Shown: positions 10,820 through 64,000 of the stretch, piece after piece
Layout of the letters: each line of letters begins with the position of its first letter
Position numbering within the stretch: the first letter of the stretch is position 1
Assembly: GCA_045654645.1 (NCBI GenBank)
Contig: JAZONR010000023.1
Coordinates: 730-64,729 of the forward strand
Reading direction: 5' to 3'
DNA from: Bacteroidaceae bacterium
GTDB taxonomy: Bacteria; Bacteroidota; Bacteroidia; Bacteroidales; Bacteroidaceae
Length of the DNA stretch: 64,000 nt
Translations under genes and position numbers: made by a program
The notes under the pieces: generated by a model
The model's database searches: none
Told to the model about the DNA's origin: nothing
Seen by the model: only the letters and a program-made list of their open reading frames with translations

Positions 10820-10827
10820 ATATCCCT

Positions 10828-10867
10828 AACATTAACCGCCGCAGGCGTGCCTGCGGCGGTTAATGTT
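10828..10867. terminator. Bidirectional hairpin terminator
   Basis: Perfect 18-bp stem (aacattaaccgccgcagg / cctgcggcggttaatgtt) with a 4-nt loop, between convergent stops at 10819 and 10869. Confidence 0.85.
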
Positions 10868-10868
10868 A

Positions 10869-48210: not shown

Positions 48211-48228
48211 AAAGAGATAGATATCTTA

Positions 48229-48268
48229 AACAATAATAGTCGCTGCTGTGGCAGCGACTATTATTGTT
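48229..48268. terminator. Bidirectional hairpin terminator
   Basis: Perfect 18-bp stem (aacaataatagtcgctgc / gcagcgactattattgtt) with a 4-nt loop. Confidence 0.85.
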
Positions 48269-48289
48269 TATGTATCAGCGACACACAGA

Positions 48290-49623: not shown

Positions 49624-50469
49624 ATGAGAGCAAAAGGGATATTCTTAACTGCACTGCTGCTGTTGCCAATTGCAACCGTTGCACAAAAACGCATATATGA
49701 ACCACAGGACAGCGCAAGGTGCGAACAGATACTGAGAGACTCACTGAGCAACAAATGCAGTATACTTTACATTGCGCACCTGTTCATAGGAGAAAAGTAT
49801 GTTGCCGGCACGCTTGAACAGGGAAGCGAGGAGCCACTCACAGTGAGCTGTACGCGCCTCGACTGCACCACATTCATAGAACTTGTACTCGCCCTGCACA
49901 TCACTGCAAATGAGGGAGATAGAAATTTCGACACACTGTGCCGCAACCTTGAAAGGGTGCGCTATCGTAACGGGAAGAACGGCGGATACGCCAGCCGCCT
50001 GCACTACATAAGCTGCTGGATTGCTGATAGTGCTAAAACGGGAATCATTGAAGAAGTAACTGCCGACATAGAGGGAGCAGAGAAGCAGTTGCTGCATCTC
50101 GATTATATGAGCAAGCACCCATCGGCCTACCCCATACTCGCTGAAAACCCATCCTTAATAAAAGAGATTGAGTTTTTAGAGGAACCGTTCCGCAACGCCG
50201 AGGCCCATTATATTCCCAAAAGAAAGCTCAAGCGCAATGGTGCAGAAGGCATTAAAGAGGGCGACATAATAGCTATTGTAACATCCATAGAGGGGCTTGA
50301 TGTTGCGCACGTTGGGTTTGCACACTATAACAACGGTGCGCTGTGCCTGTTGCACGCCTCAAGCGAAAAGGGAGAGGTTATTTTGGATACCCGCCCGCTG
50401 TGCGACTACCTGAATGAGAGAAAGAGACACATTGGGATAAGGGTTTTCAGGCCAACAACACCCCCATAA
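49624..50469 (+). CDS. DUF1460 (N-acetylmuramoyl-L-alanine amidase-like) secreted protein
   Basis: Signal peptide is MRAKGIFLTALLLLPIATVA/QK. The motif RLDCTTFIELVLAL is typical of DUF1460 as I recall it. Confidence 0.55.
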   Translation: MRAKGIFLTALLLLPIATVAQKRIYEPQDSARCEQILRDSLSNKCSILYIAHLFIGEKYVAGTLEQGSEEPLTVSCTRLDCTTFIELVLALHITANEGDRNFDTLCRNLERVRYRNGKNGGYASRLHYISCWIADSAKTGIIEEVTADIEGAEKQLLHLDYMSKHPSAYPILAENPSLIKEIEFLEEPFRNAEAHYIPKRKLKRNGAEGIKEGDIIAIVTSIEGLDVAHVGFAHYNNGALCLLHASSEKGEVILDTRPLCDYLNERKRHIGIRVFRPTTPP

Positions 50470-50512
50470 ATGATGGAAAGTGATGCCGAATCGGCATCAC
50501 TTTCCATCATTT
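50468..50512. terminator. 22-bp perfect hairpin shared by two convergent genes and overlapping both stop codons
   Basis: Arms aaatgatggaaagtgatgccga / tcggcatcactttccatcattt with a 1-nt centre. The stop of the + gene is at 50467-69 and the stop of the - gene at 50497-99, inside the right arm. Confidence 0.8.
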
Positions 50513-51441
50513 AAGAGCTTGGCGCGCTTCTCGGCAAGCCTTCTCTCACGTCTCTCAAAGGCCTCACGGGTACGTTTCCAACGGTTGTGAGTCCACAGCC
50601 ACAATTCCGGAGTCTTGCGTATCTGCTCTTCGAGTATTCTGTAATAGAGGTTAGTGGGCTCAAATTCGGGCATTTTAGAGGCATCCTCGGCAAATAGCTC
50701 GAAATGCGCAGTGTAGTAGCCACGCTTCACACGCTCCATTCTCACAAAGAAGAGCGACGCCCCTGTGCGCTGCGCTATCTTCTCTGTTCCTGTAAAAACA
50801 GGCGTGTCGCGGTGAAGGAAATCAACCCAATGCTTGATAGATTGCCAAGTGGGCACCTGGTCGGCTATGAAGCCTATCACATATTTCTTGTTCTCCTTGG
50901 TTACCTGAAGAATTCGGCGTAAGGTATTTGCCATTGTTATAGATTCTGCACCATACTGGTCGCGCATCTTCTTCATAAGACGGTCGAAATAGCTATTCTC
51001 AAGAGGATGATAGATGTCGCCCACCACCACATTCTCATCGTTGAAATAGAGCGAGAAGGATGTTACGTATTCCCAATTGAAGAAATGTCCCATATAGCAG
51101 ACACAAGAGTGTCCCTGTGCAAGCATCCTGTTGATGTCATCAATGCCGGTGATAACCATTCTGCGACGCACCTCTTTCTCACTCATACCATAGTACTTCA
51201 CAGTCTCCACAAAGTAGTCGCAAAGAGAGGAATAGAATTTTCTCTCTATTTTCTTTATCTCGTTCAAATCTTTTTCAGGAAACGAGCCAACAAGATTCTT
51301 GCGCACCACCTCTCGACGATAGCGCAACACATAGTAAACGAAATAGTATAGAATATCCGAAAAAAGATACAGCACACAAAAAGGCAATTTGTTGAGCACA
51401 AAGAGCACTGCAACAGATATATAGTAGAGAACTGCTTTCAT
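50497..51441 (-). CDS. Lipid A biosynthesis (LpxL/HtrB-like) lysophospholipid acyltransferase family protein
   Basis: 314 aa from ATG 51441 with an N-terminal TM helix and a GHFFNWEY (HX4-type) region. The TATTTTTG box 20 nt upstream supports this start. Confidence 0.7.
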   Translation of the reverse strand: MKAVLYYISVAVLFVLNKLPFCVLYLFSDILYYFVYYVLRYRREVVRKNLVGSFPEKDLNEIKKIERKFYSSLCDYFVETVKYYGMSEKEVRRRMVITGIDDINRMLAQGHSCVCYMGHFFNWEYVTSFSLYFNDENVVVGDIYHPLENSYFDRLMKKMRDQYGAESITMANTLRRILQVTKENKKYVIGFIADQVPTWQSIKHWVDFLHRDTPVFTGTEKIAQRTGASLFFVRMERVKRGYYTAHFELFAEDASKMPEFEPTNLYYRILEEQIRKTPELWLWTHNRWKRTREAFERRERRLAEKRAKLLNDGK

Positions 51442-53982: not shown

Positions 53983-54023
53983 AAATAAATCAGAGGATTG
54001 CGACGCAATCCTCTGATTTATTT
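53983..54023. terminator. Bidirectional hairpin terminator between proS and tRNA-Arg
   Basis: Arms aaataaatcagaggatt / aatcctctgatttattt around a short GC loop. Confidence 0.8.
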
Positions 54024-56062: not shown

Positions 56063-56075
56063 CCACACCTTATAA

Positions 56076-56109
56076 TATACAGCGGAACGGCTTGCCGTTC
56101 CGCTGTATA
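56076..56109. terminator. Bidirectional hairpin terminator
   Basis: Perfect 15-bp stem (tatacagcggaacgg / ccgttccgctgtata) with a 4-nt loop. Confidence 0.85.
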
Positions 56110-56128
56110 CTATTTATAAATGACTTCG

Positions 56129-58849
56129 CTAGTCATTATACCACTCAATATTCGAGCTACTGCTGCTACGCTTGTCTATTTTCAGCACATCGGCCAACAT
56201 CTGCGATGTTGCACGGAAACTGAAGTTGAATGAGGTGTAGGGCGACAGCACAATACCGCACGACATCTCAAAGCAGTGCAAGTCGCGGGAAATATTCATT
56301 GTTGTAGTTGTGAGTTTTTTATACTCGAAATTGTATCCCGAAGCAAAGTTTATGCGCCAGTTGTCGGAGATGCCTATGCTGCCCGAGAAGTTGAGGTTTT
56401 GTGTAAACTTATAGGGGTAGCGCATTTTGCTTATATCAATCTTGGCCGACCTATCCTCGGACATATTTATACCATAGGAAACAGAGAGGCTCCAAGGGAA
56501 TTTGAAGGGCATATATCCATCGGAATCCACATCTGCCTTTTTACTCTTATCCTCGGTGTTACGGCGGCTCTTTCCCTTCTTGGCTTCCGGCTTTTGACCC
56601 TGCGCCGGCTTATCTTTGATATCGCCATCCTTTTCTTTGCCAAACTTGCCGGCTATCCACTCCTTTATTTTGGTATATGTCTGGTTGTTGAATGTGTAGG
56701 AGAGATTTTGGCTCATACCCTGGAAACGGCCAAAGCGGCCATAGGACCACTCGGTCCTGTCGCCCACCACAACCTGTCCGCGGTCGTTGAATGTATAGGC
56801 ATACGTGGCCCACGTTGCATTGAAGCTGAATGTATAGCTTTTTGTAAGCTTGAGCCTCAAGCGTGTGGAGAGGTTGCTCCAAGGCCTTGTTTTTGCAGCA
56901 AGGTTATAGGATAGCGACGCTCCAAGCTCATCAATAAGACTCACCTTTTTTAACGAGTCGGTCTTTGTGCGCCACTTCATCTCCAGATTGTTACTTATAC
57001 TCAATGAGATGCTTCCCGTCTTGCCCTTGCCGGGAATTCCATAGAGCGAACCCTGATAGGGAGAATACTCTACCGTGCGCACCTCGCCATCCTCATCGGT
57101 GTAGACATAGGTATCGTAATACTCATACCTCTCATCGCCAAAATCGGGAGCGTAGCTGAACGAAAGCGAGGGCTTGAAGACGTGGCGCACCGTGTGTATA
57201 CGACTCTTCTTCATAAAGCCCGCAGGCTTATAGAAACCATAGAGTGTGGTATTGGCCGACAGCGACATATTGTAGTTATAGACCCTGTGGAAGCCATTGA
57301 TTGTGTCGCGCGCCACACTGTTTGTGGCATAGTCCCACTGCTGATTGACCTTTTTGAAATACCAGCGCTCGGTATAATTGAAGCTTGGGGTTATGTTTAT
57401 GTGGTCAAAGAGTTGGAACGTAGCACTTATGGGGATATTATGCTTTACACCGTTGTTCCAGTCGTTGAGGATATTGGACTGTAGTATGCGATCCTCCTTT
57501 GCAGTGATGCTGTTGCTCAACTGTCCGCTGTAGGAGAGTGAGATTTTCTCATACCAGCGCTCATCACCCTTGCGTTTTCTGCGCTTGAAAGGGTATTTCT
57601 TGGAGAGCGACACATTGAGACTGGGCAGATTGAGCGAGAGGATAGAATCCCTCATATTCTGCGATATGTTCATAGACGTTGAGAGTGTGAGACCTATCGA
57701 GGGGAATGTGTGCGAGTAGCTCACACTCGATGTTCTCATACTTTGCGACCTGAGAGCCGGATTATAGAGGCTGTTGAGATTGGAACGCTCATAATTAGCT
57801 GTGGAGAAATTGACGCTGGCCGAGAAGTTGCTGTTGGGGCGTGCCTTGGAATCCTGCCTATGGCTCCACATAATGCGAAAGTTCTTGCCGACAGCATAGT
57901 CGGGCAATCCCTTCTCACCTGTTTTTGTTACCAGATAGCTCATATCGAAACTGCCCGAGAACTTATACCTCTTGGCATAGGAAGATGCAGCGCCCACGCC
58001 CCACGAGCCCTTGGTGTAGATCTCTCCGGTGAGGCGAAGGTCAAACTTATCACTTATTGCGAAATAGTAGCCACCGTTGCGAAGATAGAAACCGCGCTCT
58101 GTTTCATCGCCATAGGTTGGCATTATGAAGCCCGACGAATAGCTGCTTGTAAAGGGGAAATAGCCAAACGGCAGCGCAAGCGGCAAGGGGACATCGGCCA
58201 CAACAAGATAGAGCGGACCCGACACCACATCCTTCTTGGGGCGCACCTTGGCACGCGTGAGCTTCACATAGAAGTGAGGATGAGAAGCATCGCAAGTAGT
58301 GTACATACCATCTTGGGAGTAGAAGACATTTGTAGAATCTTTTTTCGCCTTTCCACCCATTATAAAGCCGTCGCCCTGCTGAGTGAACACGTTGCTTATG
58401 AAGCCTTTACGACTCTTGAAGTTGTAGCTTATCCTGTCCGACTCATAGGGGGTGCCGCCATCGACAAAGACCGGCAGACCGCTTATCACGCCAAGAGAAT
58501 CGGCACTGCCCACTGCGTGCACCAGGCTGCTGTCCATATTCATTGATATGATATTGGCAGTGAGTTCAATCTTGTCATACTTGACCTTGCCGCTACCATA
58601 GAGATAGGCATTTCCGTTGGTAGACCACACCATAGAGTCGGTGCTTTCATAGTAGACGGGAGCATCAATGGCGTCTTTCTTGGGAGCCTTCACCGAGTCG
58701 GCCACAACCACCGAGTCGGCCGCAAGTGAATCGGCAGACAAGCTATGGACCGGCAAAAACGGCAATTGCAGTTCAGCGGCCGATGCCACGAATGGCAGGA
58801 CCAACAGCAATAACGCCATCAAGAAAGCCCTCATTATTCTATGCTCCAT
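56129..58849 (-). CDS. lptD: LptD/OstA-like LPS-assembly outer-membrane protein
   Basis: 906 aa with a signal peptide (…LLLLVLPFVASA) and an OstA-like N-terminal jellyroll (VYYESTDSMVW...YGSGKVKYDKIELTANIISM). A very large beta-barrel follows. Confidence 0.7.
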   Translation of the reverse strand: MEHRIMRAFLMALLLLVLPFVASAAELQLPFLPVHSLSADSLAADSVVVADSVKAPKKDAIDAPVYYESTDSMVWSTNGNAYLYGSGKVKYDKIELTANIISMNMDSSLVHAVGSADSLGVISGLPVFVDGGTPYESDRISYNFKSRKGFISNVFTQQGDGFIMGGKAKKDSTNVFYSQDGMYTTCDASHPHFYVKLTRAKVRPKKDVVSGPLYLVVADVPLPLALPFGYFPFTSSYSSGFIMPTYGDETERGFYLRNGGYYFAISDKFDLRLTGEIYTKGSWGVGAASSYAKRYKFSGSFDMSYLVTKTGEKGLPDYAVGKNFRIMWSHRQDSKARPNSNFSASVNFSTANYERSNLNSLYNPALRSQSMRTSSVSYSHTFPSIGLTLSTSMNISQNMRDSILSLNLPSLNVSLSKKYPFKRRKRKGDERWYEKISLSYSGQLSNSITAKEDRILQSNILNDWNNGVKHNIPISATFQLFDHINITPSFNYTERWYFKKVNQQWDYATNSVARDTINGFHRVYNYNMSLSANTTLYGFYKPAGFMKKSRIHTVRHVFKPSLSFSYAPDFGDERYEYYDTYVYTDEDGEVRTVEYSPYQGSLYGIPGKGKTGSISLSISNNLEMKWRTKTDSLKKVSLIDELGASLSYNLAAKTRPWSNLSTRLRLKLTKSYTFSFNATWATYAYTFNDRGQVVVGDRTEWSYGRFGRFQGMSQNLSYTFNNQTYTKIKEWIAGKFGKEKDGDIKDKPAQGQKPEAKKGKSRRNTEDKSKKADVDSDGYMPFKFPWSLSVSYGINMSEDRSAKIDISKMRYPYKFTQNLNFSGSIGISDNWRINFASGYNFEYKKLTTTTMNISRDLHCFEMSCGIVLSPYTSFNFSFRATSQMLADVLKIDKRSSSSSNIEWYND

Positions 58850-59003: not shown

Positions 59004-59543
59004 TCAAAGAAACATCCCGGCCCATTCAAGCACCTTGGCTGCCGACTCGTCGGAAATTTTGCGCATACTCTCCACAACCTGGTCCAGCGTACGTCGCTGC
59101 TCAAGGAATTTTGTCTTTGAATAGAACTTGTCGGCAAAGCACACCAGCTGTTCCTCAACAGTTTCCGGGACAAAATCCTTTACCGGCAAATTCCAACCGT
59201 TGGCCACAATTTGCTCCTTAGTCAGGCCGGTGCCGGTGTGGCGTTCACAAACCCTCGCGTGGCGTTCAAGCCCCAGCCCGCGCAGCAGTTCTGCTCCCAG
59301 ATAGCCGTGGCACAAGTAAGACTCTGTACCATAACAATGTATGCGCGGGGCATCGGTCAAGAAAATGCCAAGGTCGTGCAACATTGCAGCCTCATTCACA
59401 AACTGTGTGTCAATATTCAATTCGGGATGACGGGCTGCCATCTCAAGCGCCCAATCGGCCACGGCACGAGCGTGTATTTTGTAAATATTTTTCAATTCAT
59501 TTTCCTGTGGATACCACCTGTCTATTATCTCATTTACATCCAT
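59004..59543 (-). CDS. HD-domain phosphohydrolase, unknown substrate
   Basis: 179 aa from ATG 59543 (MDVNEIIDRW...) with ...AAMLHDLG (HD motif) and CERHTGTG. The TATCTTCG box 19 nt upstream supports this start over 59654. Confidence 0.7.
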   Translation of the reverse strand: MDVNEIIDRWYPQENELKNIYKIHARAVADWALEMAARHPELNIDTQFVNEAAMLHDLGIFLTDAPRIHCYGTESYLCHGYLGAELLRGLGLERHARVCERHTGTGLTKEQIVANGWNLPVKDFVPETVEEQLVCFADKFYSKTKFLEQRRTLDQVVESMRKISDESAAKVLEWAGMFL

Positions 59544-59561
59544 AAATTCACCGGTTTTGCA

Positions 59562-59569
59562 CGAAGATA
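59562..59569 (-). promoter_or_regulatory. -7 promoter box TATCTTCG for the HD-domain gene
   Basis: Exact octamer 19 nt upstream of ATG 59543. Confidence 0.45.
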
Positions 59570-59674
59570 GGAATTTTGGGCACCACCTCAAAGAATAACA
59601 GCAAAAAAGAGCACAAACCGGGAGTTGAAATATAAGATTTTTATTACTTAACATAAAATTATAGAATAAATAAC

Positions 59675-59682
59675 TATATTTG
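59675..59682 (+). promoter_or_regulatory. -7 promoter box TATATTTG for the VTC operon
   Basis: Exact TAnnTTTG 30 nt upstream of ATG 59712. Confidence 0.5.
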
Positions 59683-59711
59683 CGAAGTATAGCAATGCTA
59701 CAGCAACAGAT

Positions 59712-60473
59712 ATGGCAAACAAAATCCTGGAAAAAGCGCTAAGACTCCCCCCCATCACCCTCGAGGAGATGTCGGGGATAAAACTTATGAACAGAACCGA
59801 CACCAAGTTTGTAGCCACCACAGAACAGCTTTACGCATTTCTAACCGCCGTAGAGGGCAAGTACTACATTCAAGAGATTGACGGGAGCCGCATCGCAAGC
59901 TACCACACAACCTATTTCGACACCCCCGACTACCAAATGTACAACATACATCATTGCGGGCGCAAGGTGAGAGAGAAAATAAGAGTGCGCACCTATGTAG
60001 ACAGTGGCGACACCTTTCTTGAAGTGAAGAACAAGAACAACCACGGTCGCACAAAAAAGAAACGCATACCAATAGCCTCTCTCTTGGGAATAGCCGATGA
60101 GCGCGCAAGCATAGACCCGTTTATGGGAAAGCACGCCTGGTACACACTCGATGATATTTCGCCGGCGATTGAAAATTGGTTCAACCGCATAACACTTGTG
60201 AACTACAAGAAAACCGAGAGACTCACCATTGACTTTAATTTGAGGTTTCACCACCTTAAGAGTGATGGGCACAACCAACTGCAGAAAACAGCCATCATTG
60301 AGTTGAAGCGCGACGGCAACGTTCCCTCGCCCGCCCTTGCATTGCTGCGGGACGTGCGCATCAAGCGCTCGGGCTTCAGCAAATATTGCATCGGCAGCGC
60401 GCTCACCAACAGCAAACTCAAGCGCAACAATTTCAAGGAGAGGCTCAGAATGATTGAAAAAATGGAAAAATGA
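59712..60473 (+). CDS. Stand-alone VTC-domain protein (triphosphate tunnel metalloenzyme fold, polyphosphate-polymerase-like)
   Basis: 253 aa with no signal peptide or TM helix. Motifs are NRTDTKF, YFDT, KIRVRTY, FLEVKNK, RLTIDFNLRF, IIELK and GFSKY, in the order expected for the Vtc4-type catalytic tunnel. Confidence 0.75.
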   Translation: MANKILEKALRLPPITLEEMSGIKLMNRTDTKFVATTEQLYAFLTAVEGKYYIQEIDGSRIASYHTTYFDTPDYQMYNIHHCGRKVREKIRVRTYVDSGDTFLEVKNKNNHGRTKKKRIPIASLLGIADERASIDPFMGKHAWYTLDDISPAIENWFNRITLVNYKKTERLTIDFNLRFHHLKSDGHNQLQKTAIIELKRDGNVPSPALALLRDVRIKRSGFSKYCIGSALTNSKLKRNNFKERLRMIEKMEK

Positions 60474-60495
60474 TAACAACAAACAAAACCTTAAT

Positions 60496-61350
60496 ATGAA
60501 AAAAATCACAACACTATTGCTTCTATGCTTTGCGTTGCTTGCCCCCTTCAATGCGCAGGCAACCACAACTGCCACTGCACAGCGTTCGGTGATAGTTGCC
60601 GAGATGCTCAACGAGAATGAAGCCATCGACGATTTCAACGATGATGATGACAAAAATGCGAAAATGTCTATCTCGCTAAAGGGTAAAAAGCTGAGCAGCA
60701 ACGTATTCTTCGACACAGAGCACATCAAAGATTTGCTAATTGCCTTCTTTGTGAACCTCATTGCCATAATGATAGTTGTGCGCGGGCTCTACTACCCCAA
60801 ATGTAAGCGAGGAGAGTTCTTCTTTACATACGTGCTCATTGCCATAAGCACCTTTATGCTCATATATGTGCTTGGCGACGTAAAACTGAAGGCCGGCATA
60901 GCATTGGGATTGTTTGCAATATTCAGCATCATACGCTACCGCACCGAGCAAGTTGCTATCAGAGAGATGACCTACTTGTTCATCATCATTGCCATTAGCG
61001 CCATCAATGGCCTAACGGTTAGCGAACTGAGCCTTGGTGAGGTGCTGATTATCAACCTTCTCTTCATATCCTCGATATGGATATGCGAGAGCAAGCTGCT
61101 CATCAGCCACTACTCATACAAGGTCATAAAATATGACAATGTGAGCCTCATCACCCCCGACAAGCGTCAGGAGCTGATTGCCGACCTTGAGAGACGCACC
61201 GGCCTTAAGATTGAAAAGGTTGAGGTGGGCGCCATTGATTTCCTCAAAGACGCAGCCATCATAAAAATGTACTACAAGAGCAACGAGGCTAACAATTCAG
61301 TGGATACAACATTAAAAACACCTACCGATGAATACAAACTCAAGAACTAA
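60496..61350 (+). CDS. DUF4956-like polytopic membrane protein with N-terminal signal peptide and acidic segment
   Basis: 284 aa from ATG 60496. The start is MKKITTLLLLCFALLAPFNAQA, followed by DDFNDDDDKN. Five hydrophobic helices include ...FAIFSIIRYRTEQVAIREMTYLFIII... An 80-aa soluble tail follows. Confidence 0.65.
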   Translation: MKKITTLLLLCFALLAPFNAQATTTATAQRSVIVAEMLNENEAIDDFNDDDDKNAKMSISLKGKKLSSNVFFDTEHIKDLLIAFFVNLIAIMIVVRGLYYPKCKRGEFFFTYVLIAISTFMLIYVLGDVKLKAGIALGLFAIFSIIRYRTEQVAIREMTYLFIIIAISAINGLTVSELSLGEVLIINLLFISSIWICESKLLISHYSYKVIKYDNVSLITPDKRQELIADLERRTGLKIEKVEVGAIDFLKDAAIIKMYYKSNEANNSVDTTLKTPTDEYKLKN

Positions 61351-62209
61351 AAGAGGAGTGGCCGGCTGCCTGCTGATGGCACTGTTCGCCCTTGCCCCAC
61401 TATGCAACATCAACGCGCAGGAGAGCGATGACTTCGGCGTTTGGGCAACATTCGAGGCTTCTAAAAAGATAAACAAGAAATTCAAAGCAGGAATTGACGC
61501 CGAGGTGCGCACAATGGATGCTGTGAACAGCCTGGAACGCATTGCTGTGGGAGCTAAAATCGACTACAAGATATGCAGTTTCAAGGATTTCGGCTATAAG
61601 GATAGCGACAAATTCGAATTGAAGGCAAACGTTGGTTACATATTCTTCCACAACCAATATCCCGAGAGCAAAAGCATAAAATGGGATGAGCCCACCTATT
61701 CGGGAGAGGATATTTTGTATGGCTACAACATCGACCACGCCTATAGCGCCCTGCGCAACCGCGTCTACATCACACTGAGTGGTGAATACAAGATAGGACG
61801 TTTTGAAATTGGGTTGAGAGAGAGGCTGCAGTATACCCACACCTCTGCTGCAACTACCAATGAAACAAAATACCGTTGGGAGTGCACCGACATCCTGAAC
61901 GAAATATATGAGTTAGGCTCTGAAACAGAACCCGAGCTGAAGGAGGCTAAAGATAACCTCTCTCTGCGCTCAAGACTCAATATAAAATACGATATTCCCA
62001 ATTGCAAGGTAAACCCGTTTGCATCGGTTGAGCTATACACACGCCTCGATGAATGGAAAGGCTATGACAAAATGCGTTACCGCATTGGTGGAAGCTACAA
62101 GATAAACAAGAAGAATTCTATCTCATTGTACTATCTCTATGAGGATGTAAACGACATTGAGGAGCCCGGCACACACGCTGTAGGGCTTGAATACTCGATA
62201 GACCTTTAA
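61328..62209 (+). CDS. DUF2490-like outer-membrane beta-barrel protein
   Basis: 293 aa. The signal peptide ends ...LAPLCNINA/QE. Amphipathic strands alternate (FGVWATFEASKKI, KANVGYIFF, RVYITLSGEYKI, ISLYYLY, VGLEYSIDL). The start overlaps the preceding gene by 23 nt. Confidence 0.6.
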   Translation: MNTNSRTKRGVAGCLLMALFALAPLCNINAQESDDFGVWATFEASKKINKKFKAGIDAEVRTMDAVNSLERIAVGAKIDYKICSFKDFGYKDSDKFELKANVGYIFFHNQYPESKSIKWDEPTYSGEDILYGYNIDHAYSALRNRVYITLSGEYKIGRFEIGLRERLQYTHTSAATTNETKYRWECTDILNEIYELGSETEPELKEAKDNLSLRSRLNIKYDIPNCKVNPFASVELYTRLDEWKGYDKMRYRIGGSYKINKKNSISLYYLYEDVNDIEEPGTHAVGLEYSIDL

Positions 62210-62228
62210 GGAATAAAACTACAGCTAT

Positions 62229-62687
62229 ATGAAAAAAATATTGACTATCCTGCTTCTGCTTACGGCCACACTCACTGCAAGCGCACAGCAGATGCGCATT
62301 GACAAAGGCTACAACAACGAACAGGTTATAGCACTTGTCGATTTCAAGCAGATAACATTCGACGGTGCAACCGTAAACATTGAGCTCACTGACGGAACAA
62401 CAGAAAGCGCAACAATGGAGGAGATACACGGAATATATTTTGGCGATTTCACATCCATTGAAGAGGGCGTTCCCGCAGGCGAAGAGTTCATAAGCTATCT
62501 GTCGGCCGACTGCATTTCGGTAAACTGCAGCGCCGGAACAGTGATTACAATATATAGCCCTACCGGCTCACTGTTGCTGCACACACGCCGGCAGAGCGAT
62601 GCCGGCAGCATAAGCATTGCCAACCTGCCACGCGGCATCTACATTGTAAAGGCTAATGAAAAAAGTGCAAAAATAATAAGAAGATGA
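62229..62687 (+). CDS. Small secreted protein with T9SS (Por) C-terminal sorting domain
   Basis: 152 aa with signal peptide MKKILTILLLLTATLTASA/QQ. The C-terminal about 75 aa (...VITIYSPTGSLLLHT...ISIANLPRGIYIVKANEKSAKIIRR) match the type A T9SS CTD pattern. Confidence 0.75.
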   Translation: MKKILTILLLLTATLTASAQQMRIDKGYNNEQVIALVDFKQITFDGATVNIELTDGTTESATMEEIHGIYFGDFTSIEEGVPAGEEFISYLSADCISVNCSAGTVITIYSPTGSLLLHTRRQSDAGSISIANLPRGIYIVKANEKSAKIIRR

Positions 62688-64000
62688 AAAGAGCATTATC
62701 ATTGATTACAGTGGTGCTTGCAGCATCTTTTACGCAGGCACAGGTGTTGCACGTGAACAACACCGACGGCACATACCTTGCAACAGAGACAAAGGATGTG
62801 CAGAGCATAACTTTTGACCAGGAGCAAAAGCTTGTGAGCATTGCATCACAAAGCCGGGGTGCCAATGTAACAAGCACCTTTGCCACAGAGAAGGTTCAGA
62901 ACATAGCCCTTGAGACTGCGTGCAATGAGGCGCTGACCTATGACCTGAACCCCACAATATCTGTAGAGAGCAGTGCACCTGCCAATTTCTATGAAATAGC
63001 AGATGTCATAGAAACCGATGAGAATAAAGACGAGTATGGAGATTTTGTAGAGAATTTCAGCAGCAAACAGGTGATTACCGTAACCTTTAGCGAGGGTAGC
63101 GTAAAGACAGGCGCCCTGCCGTCAGGCATAACTGCAACAATAGACAAAGGGCACATTGTAATAAATTCATCCAACTCGGGCATAACATACACCCTGAAAG
63201 GAACTTCCAGCAACGGCTCAATAAAGATATACAGTACAAAGAAGTTCAGGATATTTACAAACAGACTAACCCTCACAAACCCCACGGGCCCCGCAATAAA
63301 CATTCAAAGCGGAAAGAGTGTCTATTTCTCAATTGCCGATGGCACAACAAACACCCTTTGCGATGGCGAGACATACGCAGCACCCACCATTGCAGCCGAC
63401 GGCACCGAAGAGGACCAGAAGGGAACACTCTTTAGCGAAGGACAGCTGATTTTTGACGGCTACAACGCCGGCACCGGAAAGCTCGAAGTTACAAGCAAGG
63501 GCGGCCACGCCATCTGCAGCGATGACTACATACGTGTGCGCGGCGGAAACATCAGCATCGTCTCAGCCGCCAAGGACGGCTTCCGCACAAAGGAGCAGTT
63601 CATCATTGGCCGCACCGAGGCATACTCCCCCACAATCACCATCAACGCCACAAACAACGGCATCGACTGCAGCGAGGGCACACTCACCATTAATGCAGGC
63701 AAGCTCAACATCACATCGGGCAGTGAAGCCATAAAAGTGGAGTATGAGGAGGAGGTACCCGACGCAGCTGTTAAACCCGATGTATATATAAAAGGAGGAT
63801 ATATAAGCACACAGACCACAGGAGAAAAGAGTTCGGCCATAAAGTGCACAGGCAACTACACACACAGTGGCGGTATTCTGCACGCGCAGGTAAATGGCAA
63901 CGGCTCAAAAATCATCAACAGCGACGGCAATGTTACCATTGACAGCGGCAAGCTCACAGGCATAGCTAAAGGCACCACCTCAAGCGACAACACATCGGCC
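62684..64000 (+). CDS. Secreted parallel beta-helix protein of the Cthe_2159 / carbohydrate-binding-domain (DUF4353) type, 3'-truncated by window end
   Basis: My own translation from ATG 62684, which overlaps the previous TGA as ATGA. Signal peptide is MKRALSLITVVLAASFTQA/QV. Repetitive coils follow: ...GSIKIYSTKKFRIFTNRLTLTNPTGPAINIQSGKSVYFSI...GKLEVTSKGGHAICSDDYIRVRGGNISIVSAAKDGFRT...GTLTINAGKLNITSGSEAIKV. The frame is open to position 64000. Confidence 0.7.
   Translation, partial: MKRALSLITVVLAASFTQAQVLHVNNTDGTYLATETKDVQSITFDQEQKLVSIASQSRGANVTSTFATEKVQNIALETACNEALTYDLNPTISVESSAPANFYEIADVIETDENKDEYGDFVENFSSKQVITVTFSEGSVKTGALPSGITATIDKGHIVINSSNSGITYTLKGTSSNGSIKIYSTKKFRIFTNRLTLTNPTGPAINIQSGKSVYFSIADGTTNTLCDGETYAAPTIAADGTEEDQKGTLFSEGQLIFDGYNAGTGKLEVTSKGGHAICSDDYIRVRGGNISIVSAAKDGFRTKEQFIIGRTEAYSPTITINATNNGIDCSEGTLTINAGKLNITSGSEAIKVEYEEEVPDAAVKPDVYIKGGYISTQTTGEKSSAIKCTGNYTHSGGILHAQVNGNGSKIINSDGNVTIDSGKLTGIAKGTTSSDNTSA

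Follow-up and report, generated by a model that had tools for sequence, protein, structure and literature searches.

Bacterial polyphosphate (polyP) is attributed to PPK1 and PPK2, and its storage normally proceeds through these two enzymes. Surface and extracellular polyP has been reported for pathogens and gut commensals, and we know of no explanation for the route by which the polymer arrives in the periplasm, at the cell surface or in the medium. In eukaryotes, the VTC complex (Vtc4/Vtc3/Vtc1 in yeast) couples polyP synthesis to translocation through its own membrane pore. The VTC-domain family is also large in bacteria (~3,900 clusters at 50% identity), where the literature searched assigns it no function. 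Here we analysed a stretch of 64,000 nucleotides (nt) from a ruminant-gut Bacteroidaceae bacterium (the window), in which five plus-strand open reading frames (ORFs), g1 to g5, run from position 59712 to the window end and form an operon that starts with a VTC-domain gene. The system is real, conserved and biochemically uncharacterised in the literature searched, and it is related to known VTC polyP synthesis. The reading that we favour, at somewhat short of an even chance, is that the operon encodes a bacterial, split version of the VTC system, in which the products of g1 and g2 would be docked as a pair that exports its product.

Among the closest known systems are accessory genes of Gram-positive pel loci, a set consisting of CotH, a polyP polymerase and DUF4956 (Whitfield et al, 2020). 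The same set occurs in the NELoc-2 locus of Clostridium perfringens, and the VTC-DUF4956 pair has been reported in Firmicutes and Bifidobacteria. In Streptococcus intermedius the three genes are SIR_1594, SIR_1593 and SIR_1592; mutants without the DUF4956-type and CotH genes had a changed Pel level and changed aggregation (mBio, 2025), and the authors suggest no more than a role in phosphate metabolism. The pel-linked genes have the same VTC-DUF4956 core as the window operon, are linked to secreted proteins and surface polymers, and are the only such system with genetic data. In contrast, their hosts are monoderm and hence without an outer-membrane barrel, and the partner of the core is a secreted CotH protein beside Pel polysaccharide genes, whereas the window operon has neither CotH nor pel and adds a DUF2490 barrel, a cargo protein of the type IX secretion system (T9SS) and a Cthe_2159 protein. 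The authors who described the pel-linked trio did not find it outside pel loci; we found CotH-VTC-DUF4956 without pel genes in Deinococcus and in metagenome loci. Within the Bacteroidota, Bacteroides thetaiotaomicron has adjacent DUF4956 and DUF2490 genes (BT3498-BT3499), whose expression showed no significant change under iron limitation in published data. The five-gene form has no description in the literature searched.

The enzyme of the window operon belongs to the same catalytic family as that of eukaryotic VTC. The g1 protein matches PF09359 (VTC) over profile positions 1-233 of 235 (E 3.6e-29; 102.4 bits against a cut-off of 23), and its N-terminus is not hydrophobic, in agreement with the cytoplasmic location that had been proposed for it from the sequence alone. 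A 73-sequence profile of the g1 family, built from cluster representatives and distant homologues, retrieved from the Protein Data Bank (PDB) the structures of Vtc2 (3G3O, 3e-5) and Vtc4 (3G3Q, 4.2e-5) and also 8I6V chain E, the native numbering of which is used here for Vtc4. Only diverse profiles of 10 and 73 sequences reached the Vtc structures; PDB searches with the single g1 sequence, a narrow 28-sequence profile and a C-terminal-only profile did not reach Vtc4. Mutagenesis accompanying a cryo-electron microscopy study showed that Vtc4 residues K200, R264, R266, K281, Y359, R361, E426, S457 and K458 are needed for polyP synthesis. Eight of these nine tunnel residues are kept in g1 (K32=K200, R91=R264, R93=R266, K106=K281, E197=E426, S223=S457, K224=K458 and, mapped through the Vtc2 alignment, R159=R361), the exception being Y359, which is F157 in g1. 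According to the same study, K458 is the sole catalytic residue that differs (Ile/Leu) in the inactive paralogues Vtc2 and Vtc3, and its equivalent K224 is invariant across the 73 diverse bacterial VTC homologues. The most likely activity of g1 is polymerisation of the gamma-phosphate of ATP, or of another nucleoside triphosphate (NTP), into polyP.

Unlike the eukaryotic enzyme, g1 is a free-standing VTC domain of 253 amino acids (aa), without SPX and without the fused three-helix membrane domain that forms the pore together with Vtc1. This holds for the family more widely: the top 150 representatives are 128-347 aa long, the seven longest scanned carry only the VTC domain, and no VTC-DUF4956 fusion was found among the top 150, as judged from their lengths, or in 80 metagenome loci. 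A pattern scan of viral contigs detected no VTC relatives, and no exact copies of g1, g3 or g4 were present in the public assemblies searched.

As in eukaryotic VTC, a membrane component would be an obligatory partner of the enzyme, whose product plausibly ends up on the other side of the membrane. Here this component would be g2, a member of the DUF4956 family (PF16316; E 1.2e-54; 185.1 bits against a cut-off of 30.6) with a signal-peptide-like N-terminus, an acidic linker of ~55 residues, five transmembrane helices and a C-terminal alpha/beta domain. The helices, located by hydropathy and by secondary structure in the AlphaFold2 (AF2) model at residues 74-99, 107-125, 129-149, 152-173 and 180-201, agree with the five-helix inner-membrane protein of the sequence-only reading. 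Residues Y99, F120, G138-L139-F140, R149, Y160, F162, L231 and R234 are invariant across phyla. In contrast, residues 1-78 (window 60496-60730), comprising the signal-peptide-like start and the Asp-rich linker, are peculiar to this Bacteroidaceae clade, and DUF4956 homologues of other phyla and of other Bacteroidota have neither the signal-like stretch nor the acidic linker. With the N-terminus outside and five helices to follow, the C-terminal domain and the conserved basic loops (LYYPK.KR and R147-x-R149-x-E) are predicted to face the cytoplasm, where they could meet the VTC protein, and the linker is predicted to be periplasmic. The five helices and the C-terminal domain set DUF4956 apart from the VTC membrane domain, to which it is not detectably related. 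Proteins of the MgtC/SapB type with an ACT-like domain share the layout of g2, i.e. four or five helices followed by a small C-terminal alpha/beta domain, and MgtC has been linked to phosphate homeostasis. However, kinship of DUF4956 with MgtC, as put forward in the S. intermedius paper, found no support here: hhalign gave a probability of 0.2% against Escherichia coli YhiD, and g2 has no match to PF02308.

The window operon further differs from eukaryotic VTC by an outer-membrane barrel and exported proteins. That g3 is a signal-peptide beta-barrel is borne out by its match to DUF2490 (PF10677; E 3.1e-25; 89.4 bits against a cut-off of 29.8) and by a confident AF2 model (pLDDT 85, pTM 0.74), which folds into a barrel of ~14-15 strands after the signal peptide. 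Foldseek returned only membrane barrels for this model, including NanC, autotransporter barrels, FadL and VDAC/Tom40. The lumen side carries ~20 conserved Lys/Arg residues, arranged in ladders on neighbouring strands, versus ~8 conserved acidic residues. In four loci from about three lineages (L112, L130, L138, L141), the gene directly after DUF4956 encodes instead a phosphate-selective porin O/P (PF07396; E 1.7e-46 and 1.1e-40 in L130 and L141), in the order CotH-VTC-DUF4956-porin (L130:3367-7779; L141:3174-7695), and porin O/P and DUF2490 never occur together in one locus. The family includes OprP and OprO of Pseudomonas, channels specific for phosphate and pyrophosphate. The presence of a non-homologous porin O/P in the slot of DUF2490, the most telling result of the analysis, argues that the outer-membrane component handles an anion of the phosphate type, and it provides an independent tie between this slot and phosphate anions. 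g3 resembles OprP/OprO in this position and in its lumen Arg/Lys ladders; it differs in that it has no match to PF07396, in that OprP/OprO were not among the top 50 Foldseek matches listed, and in being a smaller barrel of ~14 strands. Just 5′ of the cassette in L141 lie genes for a histidine kinase and an OmpR-type regulator.

Linkage of the genes was surveyed within the clade and across phyla. Of 84 Bacteroidaceae loci, 74 contain the complete set of five genes, which stays together even where rearrangements have changed the downstream flank; since the neighbouring LptD and HD genes are also conserved in the clade, this synteny reflects vertical inheritance and is weak evidence. Three sources extended the survey beyond the clade: tblastn against plasmids and chromids, the contexts of five distant VTC representatives, and a metagenome scan that used DUF4956 as its anchor and a Deinococcus protein as the reference. 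VTC and DUF4956 were adjacent in all seven loci found by tblastn, in both gene orders, in Deinococcus, Aminobacter, Nitratireductor, Shinella, Streptomyces and Nonomuraea (Deinococcota, Alphaproteobacteria and Actinomycetota); the neighbours there include CotH, a phytase-like esterase or PiT. Among the five distant representatives the two genes were adjacent in four, counting a partial DUF4956 ORF at a contig end (L096): two showed VTC-DUF4956-DUF2490 in new neighbourhoods, one VTC-DUF4956, one the partial pair and one VTC alone. The metagenome scan yielded 80 loci (L102-L181; 76 clusters at 90% identity and 19 at 60%), in which VTC lies directly 5′ of DUF4956 on the same strand in 74 of 76 informative cases (18/19 clusters at 60% identity), with a median of -10.5 nt from the VTC stop to the DUF4956 start, the reading frames usually overlapping. 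DUF2490 follows DUF4956 in 35 of 67 informative metagenome loci, with a median overlap of 14 nt. The pair is thus tight across phyla and DUF2490 is a recurrent third partner in diderms, which is the conserved synteny that the sequence-only reading had depended on. Its statement that VTC genes recur beside DUF4956 and often beside CotH and Cthe_2159 genes likewise proved sound: of the 80 metagenome loci, 13 contain CotH, 8 Cthe_2159, 16 a CarboxypepD_reg-like lipoprotein and 14 a small repeat protein. No cytoplasmic polyP-handling gene recurs in the surveyed VTC-DUF4956 neighbourhoods. At L099:10069-12023, a VTC-DUF4956-DUF2490 operon overlaps at its end with genes for a histidine kinase of the LytS type and for a LytTR response regulator, which suggests dedicated regulation of the cassette in that lineage.

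Among the accessory proteins, export signals (Sec, twin-arginine translocation or lipoprotein) were found on 8 of 11 CotH, 7 of 8 Cthe_2159 and 13 of 13 CarboxypepD_reg-like proteins, so the variable part of the system works outside the cytoplasm. In the window operon, g4 had been read as T9SS-sorted, and its C-terminus indeed passes the NCBIfam threshold for the T9SS type A sorting domain (TIGR04183, 28.3 bits against a cut-off of 23), with Pfam PF18962 narrowly under its own (25.5 bits against 27); g4 is kept in 74 of 84 related loci. g5 is a Cthe_2159 protein (PF14262; E 2.7e-37 for the part in the window and 4.7e-49 for the complete protein), and it matches the solved structure of Cthe_2159 as well (PDB 4PEU, E 4.9e-8). 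With these matches all five family assignments of the sequence-only reading (VTC, DUF4956, DUF2490, T9SS sorting domain and Cthe_2159) pass in searches with the respective models. An N-terminal module common to g4 and g5, suspected by eye, was unsupported by BLASTP.

Elsewhere, the operon-linked CotH kinases are extracytoplasmic and without an obvious supply of ATP. Two of them (L119:2539-4749 and L141:3174-5174) have a lamin-tail domain, that of L119 has a T9SS sorting domain as well, and the CotH protein of L158 has a twin-arginine-like signal. In many Bacteroidota-type loci two small exported proteins recur directly 5′ of VTC on the same strand, the first a CarboxypepD_reg/prealbumin-like lipoprotein (e.g. 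L098:6949-7985; 16 loci of L102-L181) and the second a Lys-rich protein of ~150 aa that contains YD-like repeats and matches nothing in Pfam (14 loci of L102-L181).

In the mechanism that we propose, g1 would be a cytoplasmic Vtc4-type triphosphate-tunnel enzyme making polyP from the gamma-phosphate of ATP or another NTP. It would be docked on g2, whose cytoplasmic C-terminal domain and basic loops would receive the chain and whose five-helix membrane domain, probably oligomeric, would hand it to the periplasm. The anion-lined barrel g3 would then let the chain or fragments of it cross the outer membrane, and, in the periplasm or on the cell surface, the T9SS-sorted g4 and the beta-helix protein g5 would bind the polyanion or make use of it; for g5, the proposal draws on the Cthe_2159 beta-helix fold, which is known to bind polyanionic polysaccharide. 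In other lineages the VTC-DUF4956 core is paired instead with secreted CotH kinases, lipoproteins or OprO/P porins. In its logic the proposed pathway resembles synthase-dependent secretion of cellulose (BcsA/B/C), alginate (Alg8/44/AlgE) and PNAG (PgaCD/PgaA), in which polymerisation and extrusion at the inner membrane are followed by passage through a dedicated barrel. Unlike those systems, it has no component homologous to theirs, its polymer would be inorganic, its synthase is soluble instead of an integral membrane protein, and the window operon lacks a periplasmic scaffold or TPR protein.

A coupled synthase-exporter would represent both a new enzyme class and a new route across the envelope. 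It would account for the clustering of CotH kinases and Cthe_2159 proteins that bear export signals with VTC-DUF4956, and the BT3498-BT3499 pair of B. thetaiotaomicron would make extracellular polyP of gut Bacteroidota accessible to genetics. A bolder version, possible but doubtful in our estimation, is that VTC-DUF4956 constitutes a third widespread class of bacterial polyP synthase beside PPK1 and PPK2, which would extrude its product and pass it on through DUF2490 or OprO/P barrels to the periplasm or surface, as a matrix polyanion or as phosphoryl donor for CotH. It would be the first dedicated polyP secretion pathway, and CotH kinases, having no ATP outside the cell, could use the exported polymer as their phosphoryl donor. 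With a small soluble enzyme and a two-gene core, the hypothesis is directly testable.

Several observations weigh against a split synthase-exporter. The position of Y359 (F157 in g1) varies within the family, and Y359F lowers polyP in yeast; moreover, the HMMER segment in which E197 and S223-K224 line up with E426 and S457-K458 has a low score, and the equivalence was accepted on motif identity and order, not on score. The AF2 model of g2 is poor (pLDDT 51, with 48 close homologues in the alignment), so its Foldseek matches (E > 0.07, TM < 0.2) carry no meaning and were set aside. A profile search of the PDB found no solved structure that DUF4956 resembles by sequence, the sole match of g2, interleukin-34, being judged spurious, and g2 and four other DUF4956 proteins match no VTC membrane-domain model even at E up to 10. 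The idea of a split VTC synthase and translocase, as first formulated from the sequence, is supported by the catalytic set, the gene linkage and the tie of the barrel slot to phosphate anions, and finds no support in the membrane domain, in which DUF4956 has no detectable similarity to VTC. A preprint reports a buried network of salt bridges and charges inside many DUF2490 barrel models, so the lumen may be narrow or closed, and the OprO/P porins, unlike the outward conduit envisaged for g3, are characterised as uptake channels. No signal known to direct sorting to the surface is present in g5, neither a T9SS tail (Pfam) nor a signal-peptide Cys (translation); of its suggested role as a secreted surface binder, export is upheld by the Sec signal and surface location is not. 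A Bacteroidales VTC protein 46% identical to g1 (L097:8001-10236) is encoded without a DUF4956 gene in the surrounding 8 kb, and its gene converges with one for a 477-aa TPM-phosphatase-domain protein. The literature searched yields no biochemical study of a bacterial VTC-domain protein, and for deletion of the VTC gene in S. intermedius no phenotype was reported (mBio, 2025). Finally, some neighbourhoods contain PiT, a phytase-like esterase, phnCDE or an acid phosphatase, which fits acquisition of phosphate equally well as export.

The last point leads to an alternative in which the flow is inward: the barrel would admit phosphate (Pi), pyrophosphate (PPi) or polyP, the exported proteins would bind phosphate of polymers outside the cell or release it from them, VTC would use ATP to build a membrane-proximal store of polyP from it, and DUF4956 would be an anchor or transporter. 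Such scavenging and storage would suit the OprO/P porins, which serve uptake and are induced by phosphate starvation, the DUF4956-VTC-PiT arrangement with a phytase-like esterase in Nitratireductor, the phytase-like esterase in Aminobacter and Shinella, the HAD acid phosphatase and phnDCE near the cassette in Deinococcus QL22, and the two-component systems adjoining it in L099 and L141. We nevertheless consider it unlikely: just one of the examined neighbourhoods contains Pi transporters, the core recurs with CotH kinases, beta-helix proteins and lipoproteins instead of phosphatases or binding proteins, and the polyP made by eukaryotic VTC always leaves the cytosol. With storage normally served by PPK1/PPK2, it would also be harder to account for one more synthase in the cytoplasm that is linked to a membrane protein and an outer-membrane barrel. 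Alternatively, polyP might be made in the cytoplasm by a membrane-anchored, regulated enzyme and not be translocated at all, with DUF4956 as an MgtC-like scaffold or sensor whose ACT-like domain controls VTC, and with the barrel and exported proteins forming a separate matter. The S. intermedius homologue has been described in just these terms, as an MgtC-like membrane domain with an intracellular ACT domain; the C-terminus of g2 is predicted to be a small alpha/beta domain, one DUF4956 protein has a weak, sub-threshold match to the MgtC model PF02308 (E 0.043), and no pore-like homology was found for g2. Yet the DUF4956 profile reaches a probability of only 0.2% in hhalign with YhiD, a member of the MgtC family, the accessory genes are consistently extracytoplasmic, and DUF2490 does not behave as an unrelated neighbour would, since it overlaps DUF4956 in many lineages and is swapped for a phosphate porin. 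Synthesis without translocation thus also appears improbable to us.

The enzyme itself might be something other than a polymerase, for example a tripolyphosphatase, an NTP triphosphatase or an enzyme synthesising another phospho-compound, in which case the cassette would handle that product or signal. The triphosphate-tunnel (CYTH) superfamily includes hydrolases as well as cyclases. The variable Y359 position and the low identity to Vtc4, which was reached in the PDB only with diverse profiles, would both allow this, but g1 matches the VTC model over its full length and no other CYTH model, and the residue that separates Vtc4 from its inactive paralogues is invariant in the homologues; we regard a different activity as very unlikely. 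Chance juxtaposition of unrelated genes, finally, would account for conservation in the clade that extends to LptD and HD and hence reflects vertical inheritance. It is scarcely credible in view of the cross-phylum survey, which effectively refutes it, as pair and triad recur in different neighbourhoods, phyla and gene orders.

The arrangement of the operon (Table 1) is as the sequence-only reading had it. The five same-strand ORFs are separated by 22 nt (g1-g2), -23 nt (g2/g3 overlap), 19 nt (g3-g4) and -4 nt (g4/g5, an ATGA overlap). A motif scan found TATATTTG to be the sole plus-strand TAnnTTTG within 59600-64000, and a copy of this motif lies at most 120 nt 5′ of g1 in 62 of 79 related loci, in agreement with a single promoter box. 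Window-wide, TAnnTTTG is not enriched (58 found versus 47 expected), so the evidence for the promoter box is positional only. A sigma-70 promoter scan of the window was set aside as uninformative for Bacteroidota. The terminator scan of the window detected no plus-strand terminator-like site inside the operon, and none of the eight long hairpins of the window lies there, confirming that no hairpin separates the genes.

Table 1. Positions of the operon and of its upstream neighbours in the window.
Feature	Positions	Strand	Description
-7 promoter box candidate TATATTTG	59675..59682	+	30 nt 5′ of g1 ATG; Bacteroidetes-type
g1	59712..60473	+	Cytoplasmic VTC-domain (triphosphate tunnel) protein, 253 aa, candidate polyP polymerase
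g2	60496..61350	+	DUF4956 inner-membrane protein, 284 aa
g3	61328..62209	+	DUF2490 outer-membrane beta-barrel, 293 aa, with signal peptide
g4	62229..62687	+	Small exported protein, 152 aa, T9SS type A C-terminal sorting domain
g5	62684..64000 (cut by window end)	+	Cthe_2159-type beta-helix, Sec signal peptide
HD gene	59004-59654	-	HD-domain phosphohydrolase-like
LptD_2 gene	56129-58849	-

The downstream end could be read from contig L092, which aligns to the window with 98.99% identity over 10,328 nt and in which full-length g5 is 562 aa. Past the window end, on the same strand and 22 nt after the g5 stop, L092 carries a fabI-like enoyl-ACP reductase gene (adh_short_C2; L092:10720-11526), followed by a hairpin. 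In other species of the clade g5 is the final gene and a convergent gene comes next. Together these contexts define a system of five genes, and the expectation that the operon would continue beyond the window, possibly into CotH, was not borne out: no CotH gene was found in this Bacteroidaceae clade, and the position is taken by the fabI-like or the convergent gene. The fabI-like gene is not found at this position in other species, and no TAnnTTTG was seen by eye in the 160 nt preceding it in L092; it may be co-transcribed with g5 in the species of the window.

Upstream, the divergent HD and LptD_2 genes are conserved with the operon across the clade. Over its first 37 codons the HD ORF does not resemble coding sequence, and its relatives are called at 179-195 aa, so the shared promoter region is probably ~170 nt, not 57 nt. 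The strong hairpin terminators noted elsewhere in the window are real, the eight long hairpins all lying outside the operon. Perfect or near-perfect inverted repeats of 20-23 nt with loops of 1-4 nt were observed at 50467-50513, 53983-54023, 48227-48270, 10827-10868 and 56072-56113.

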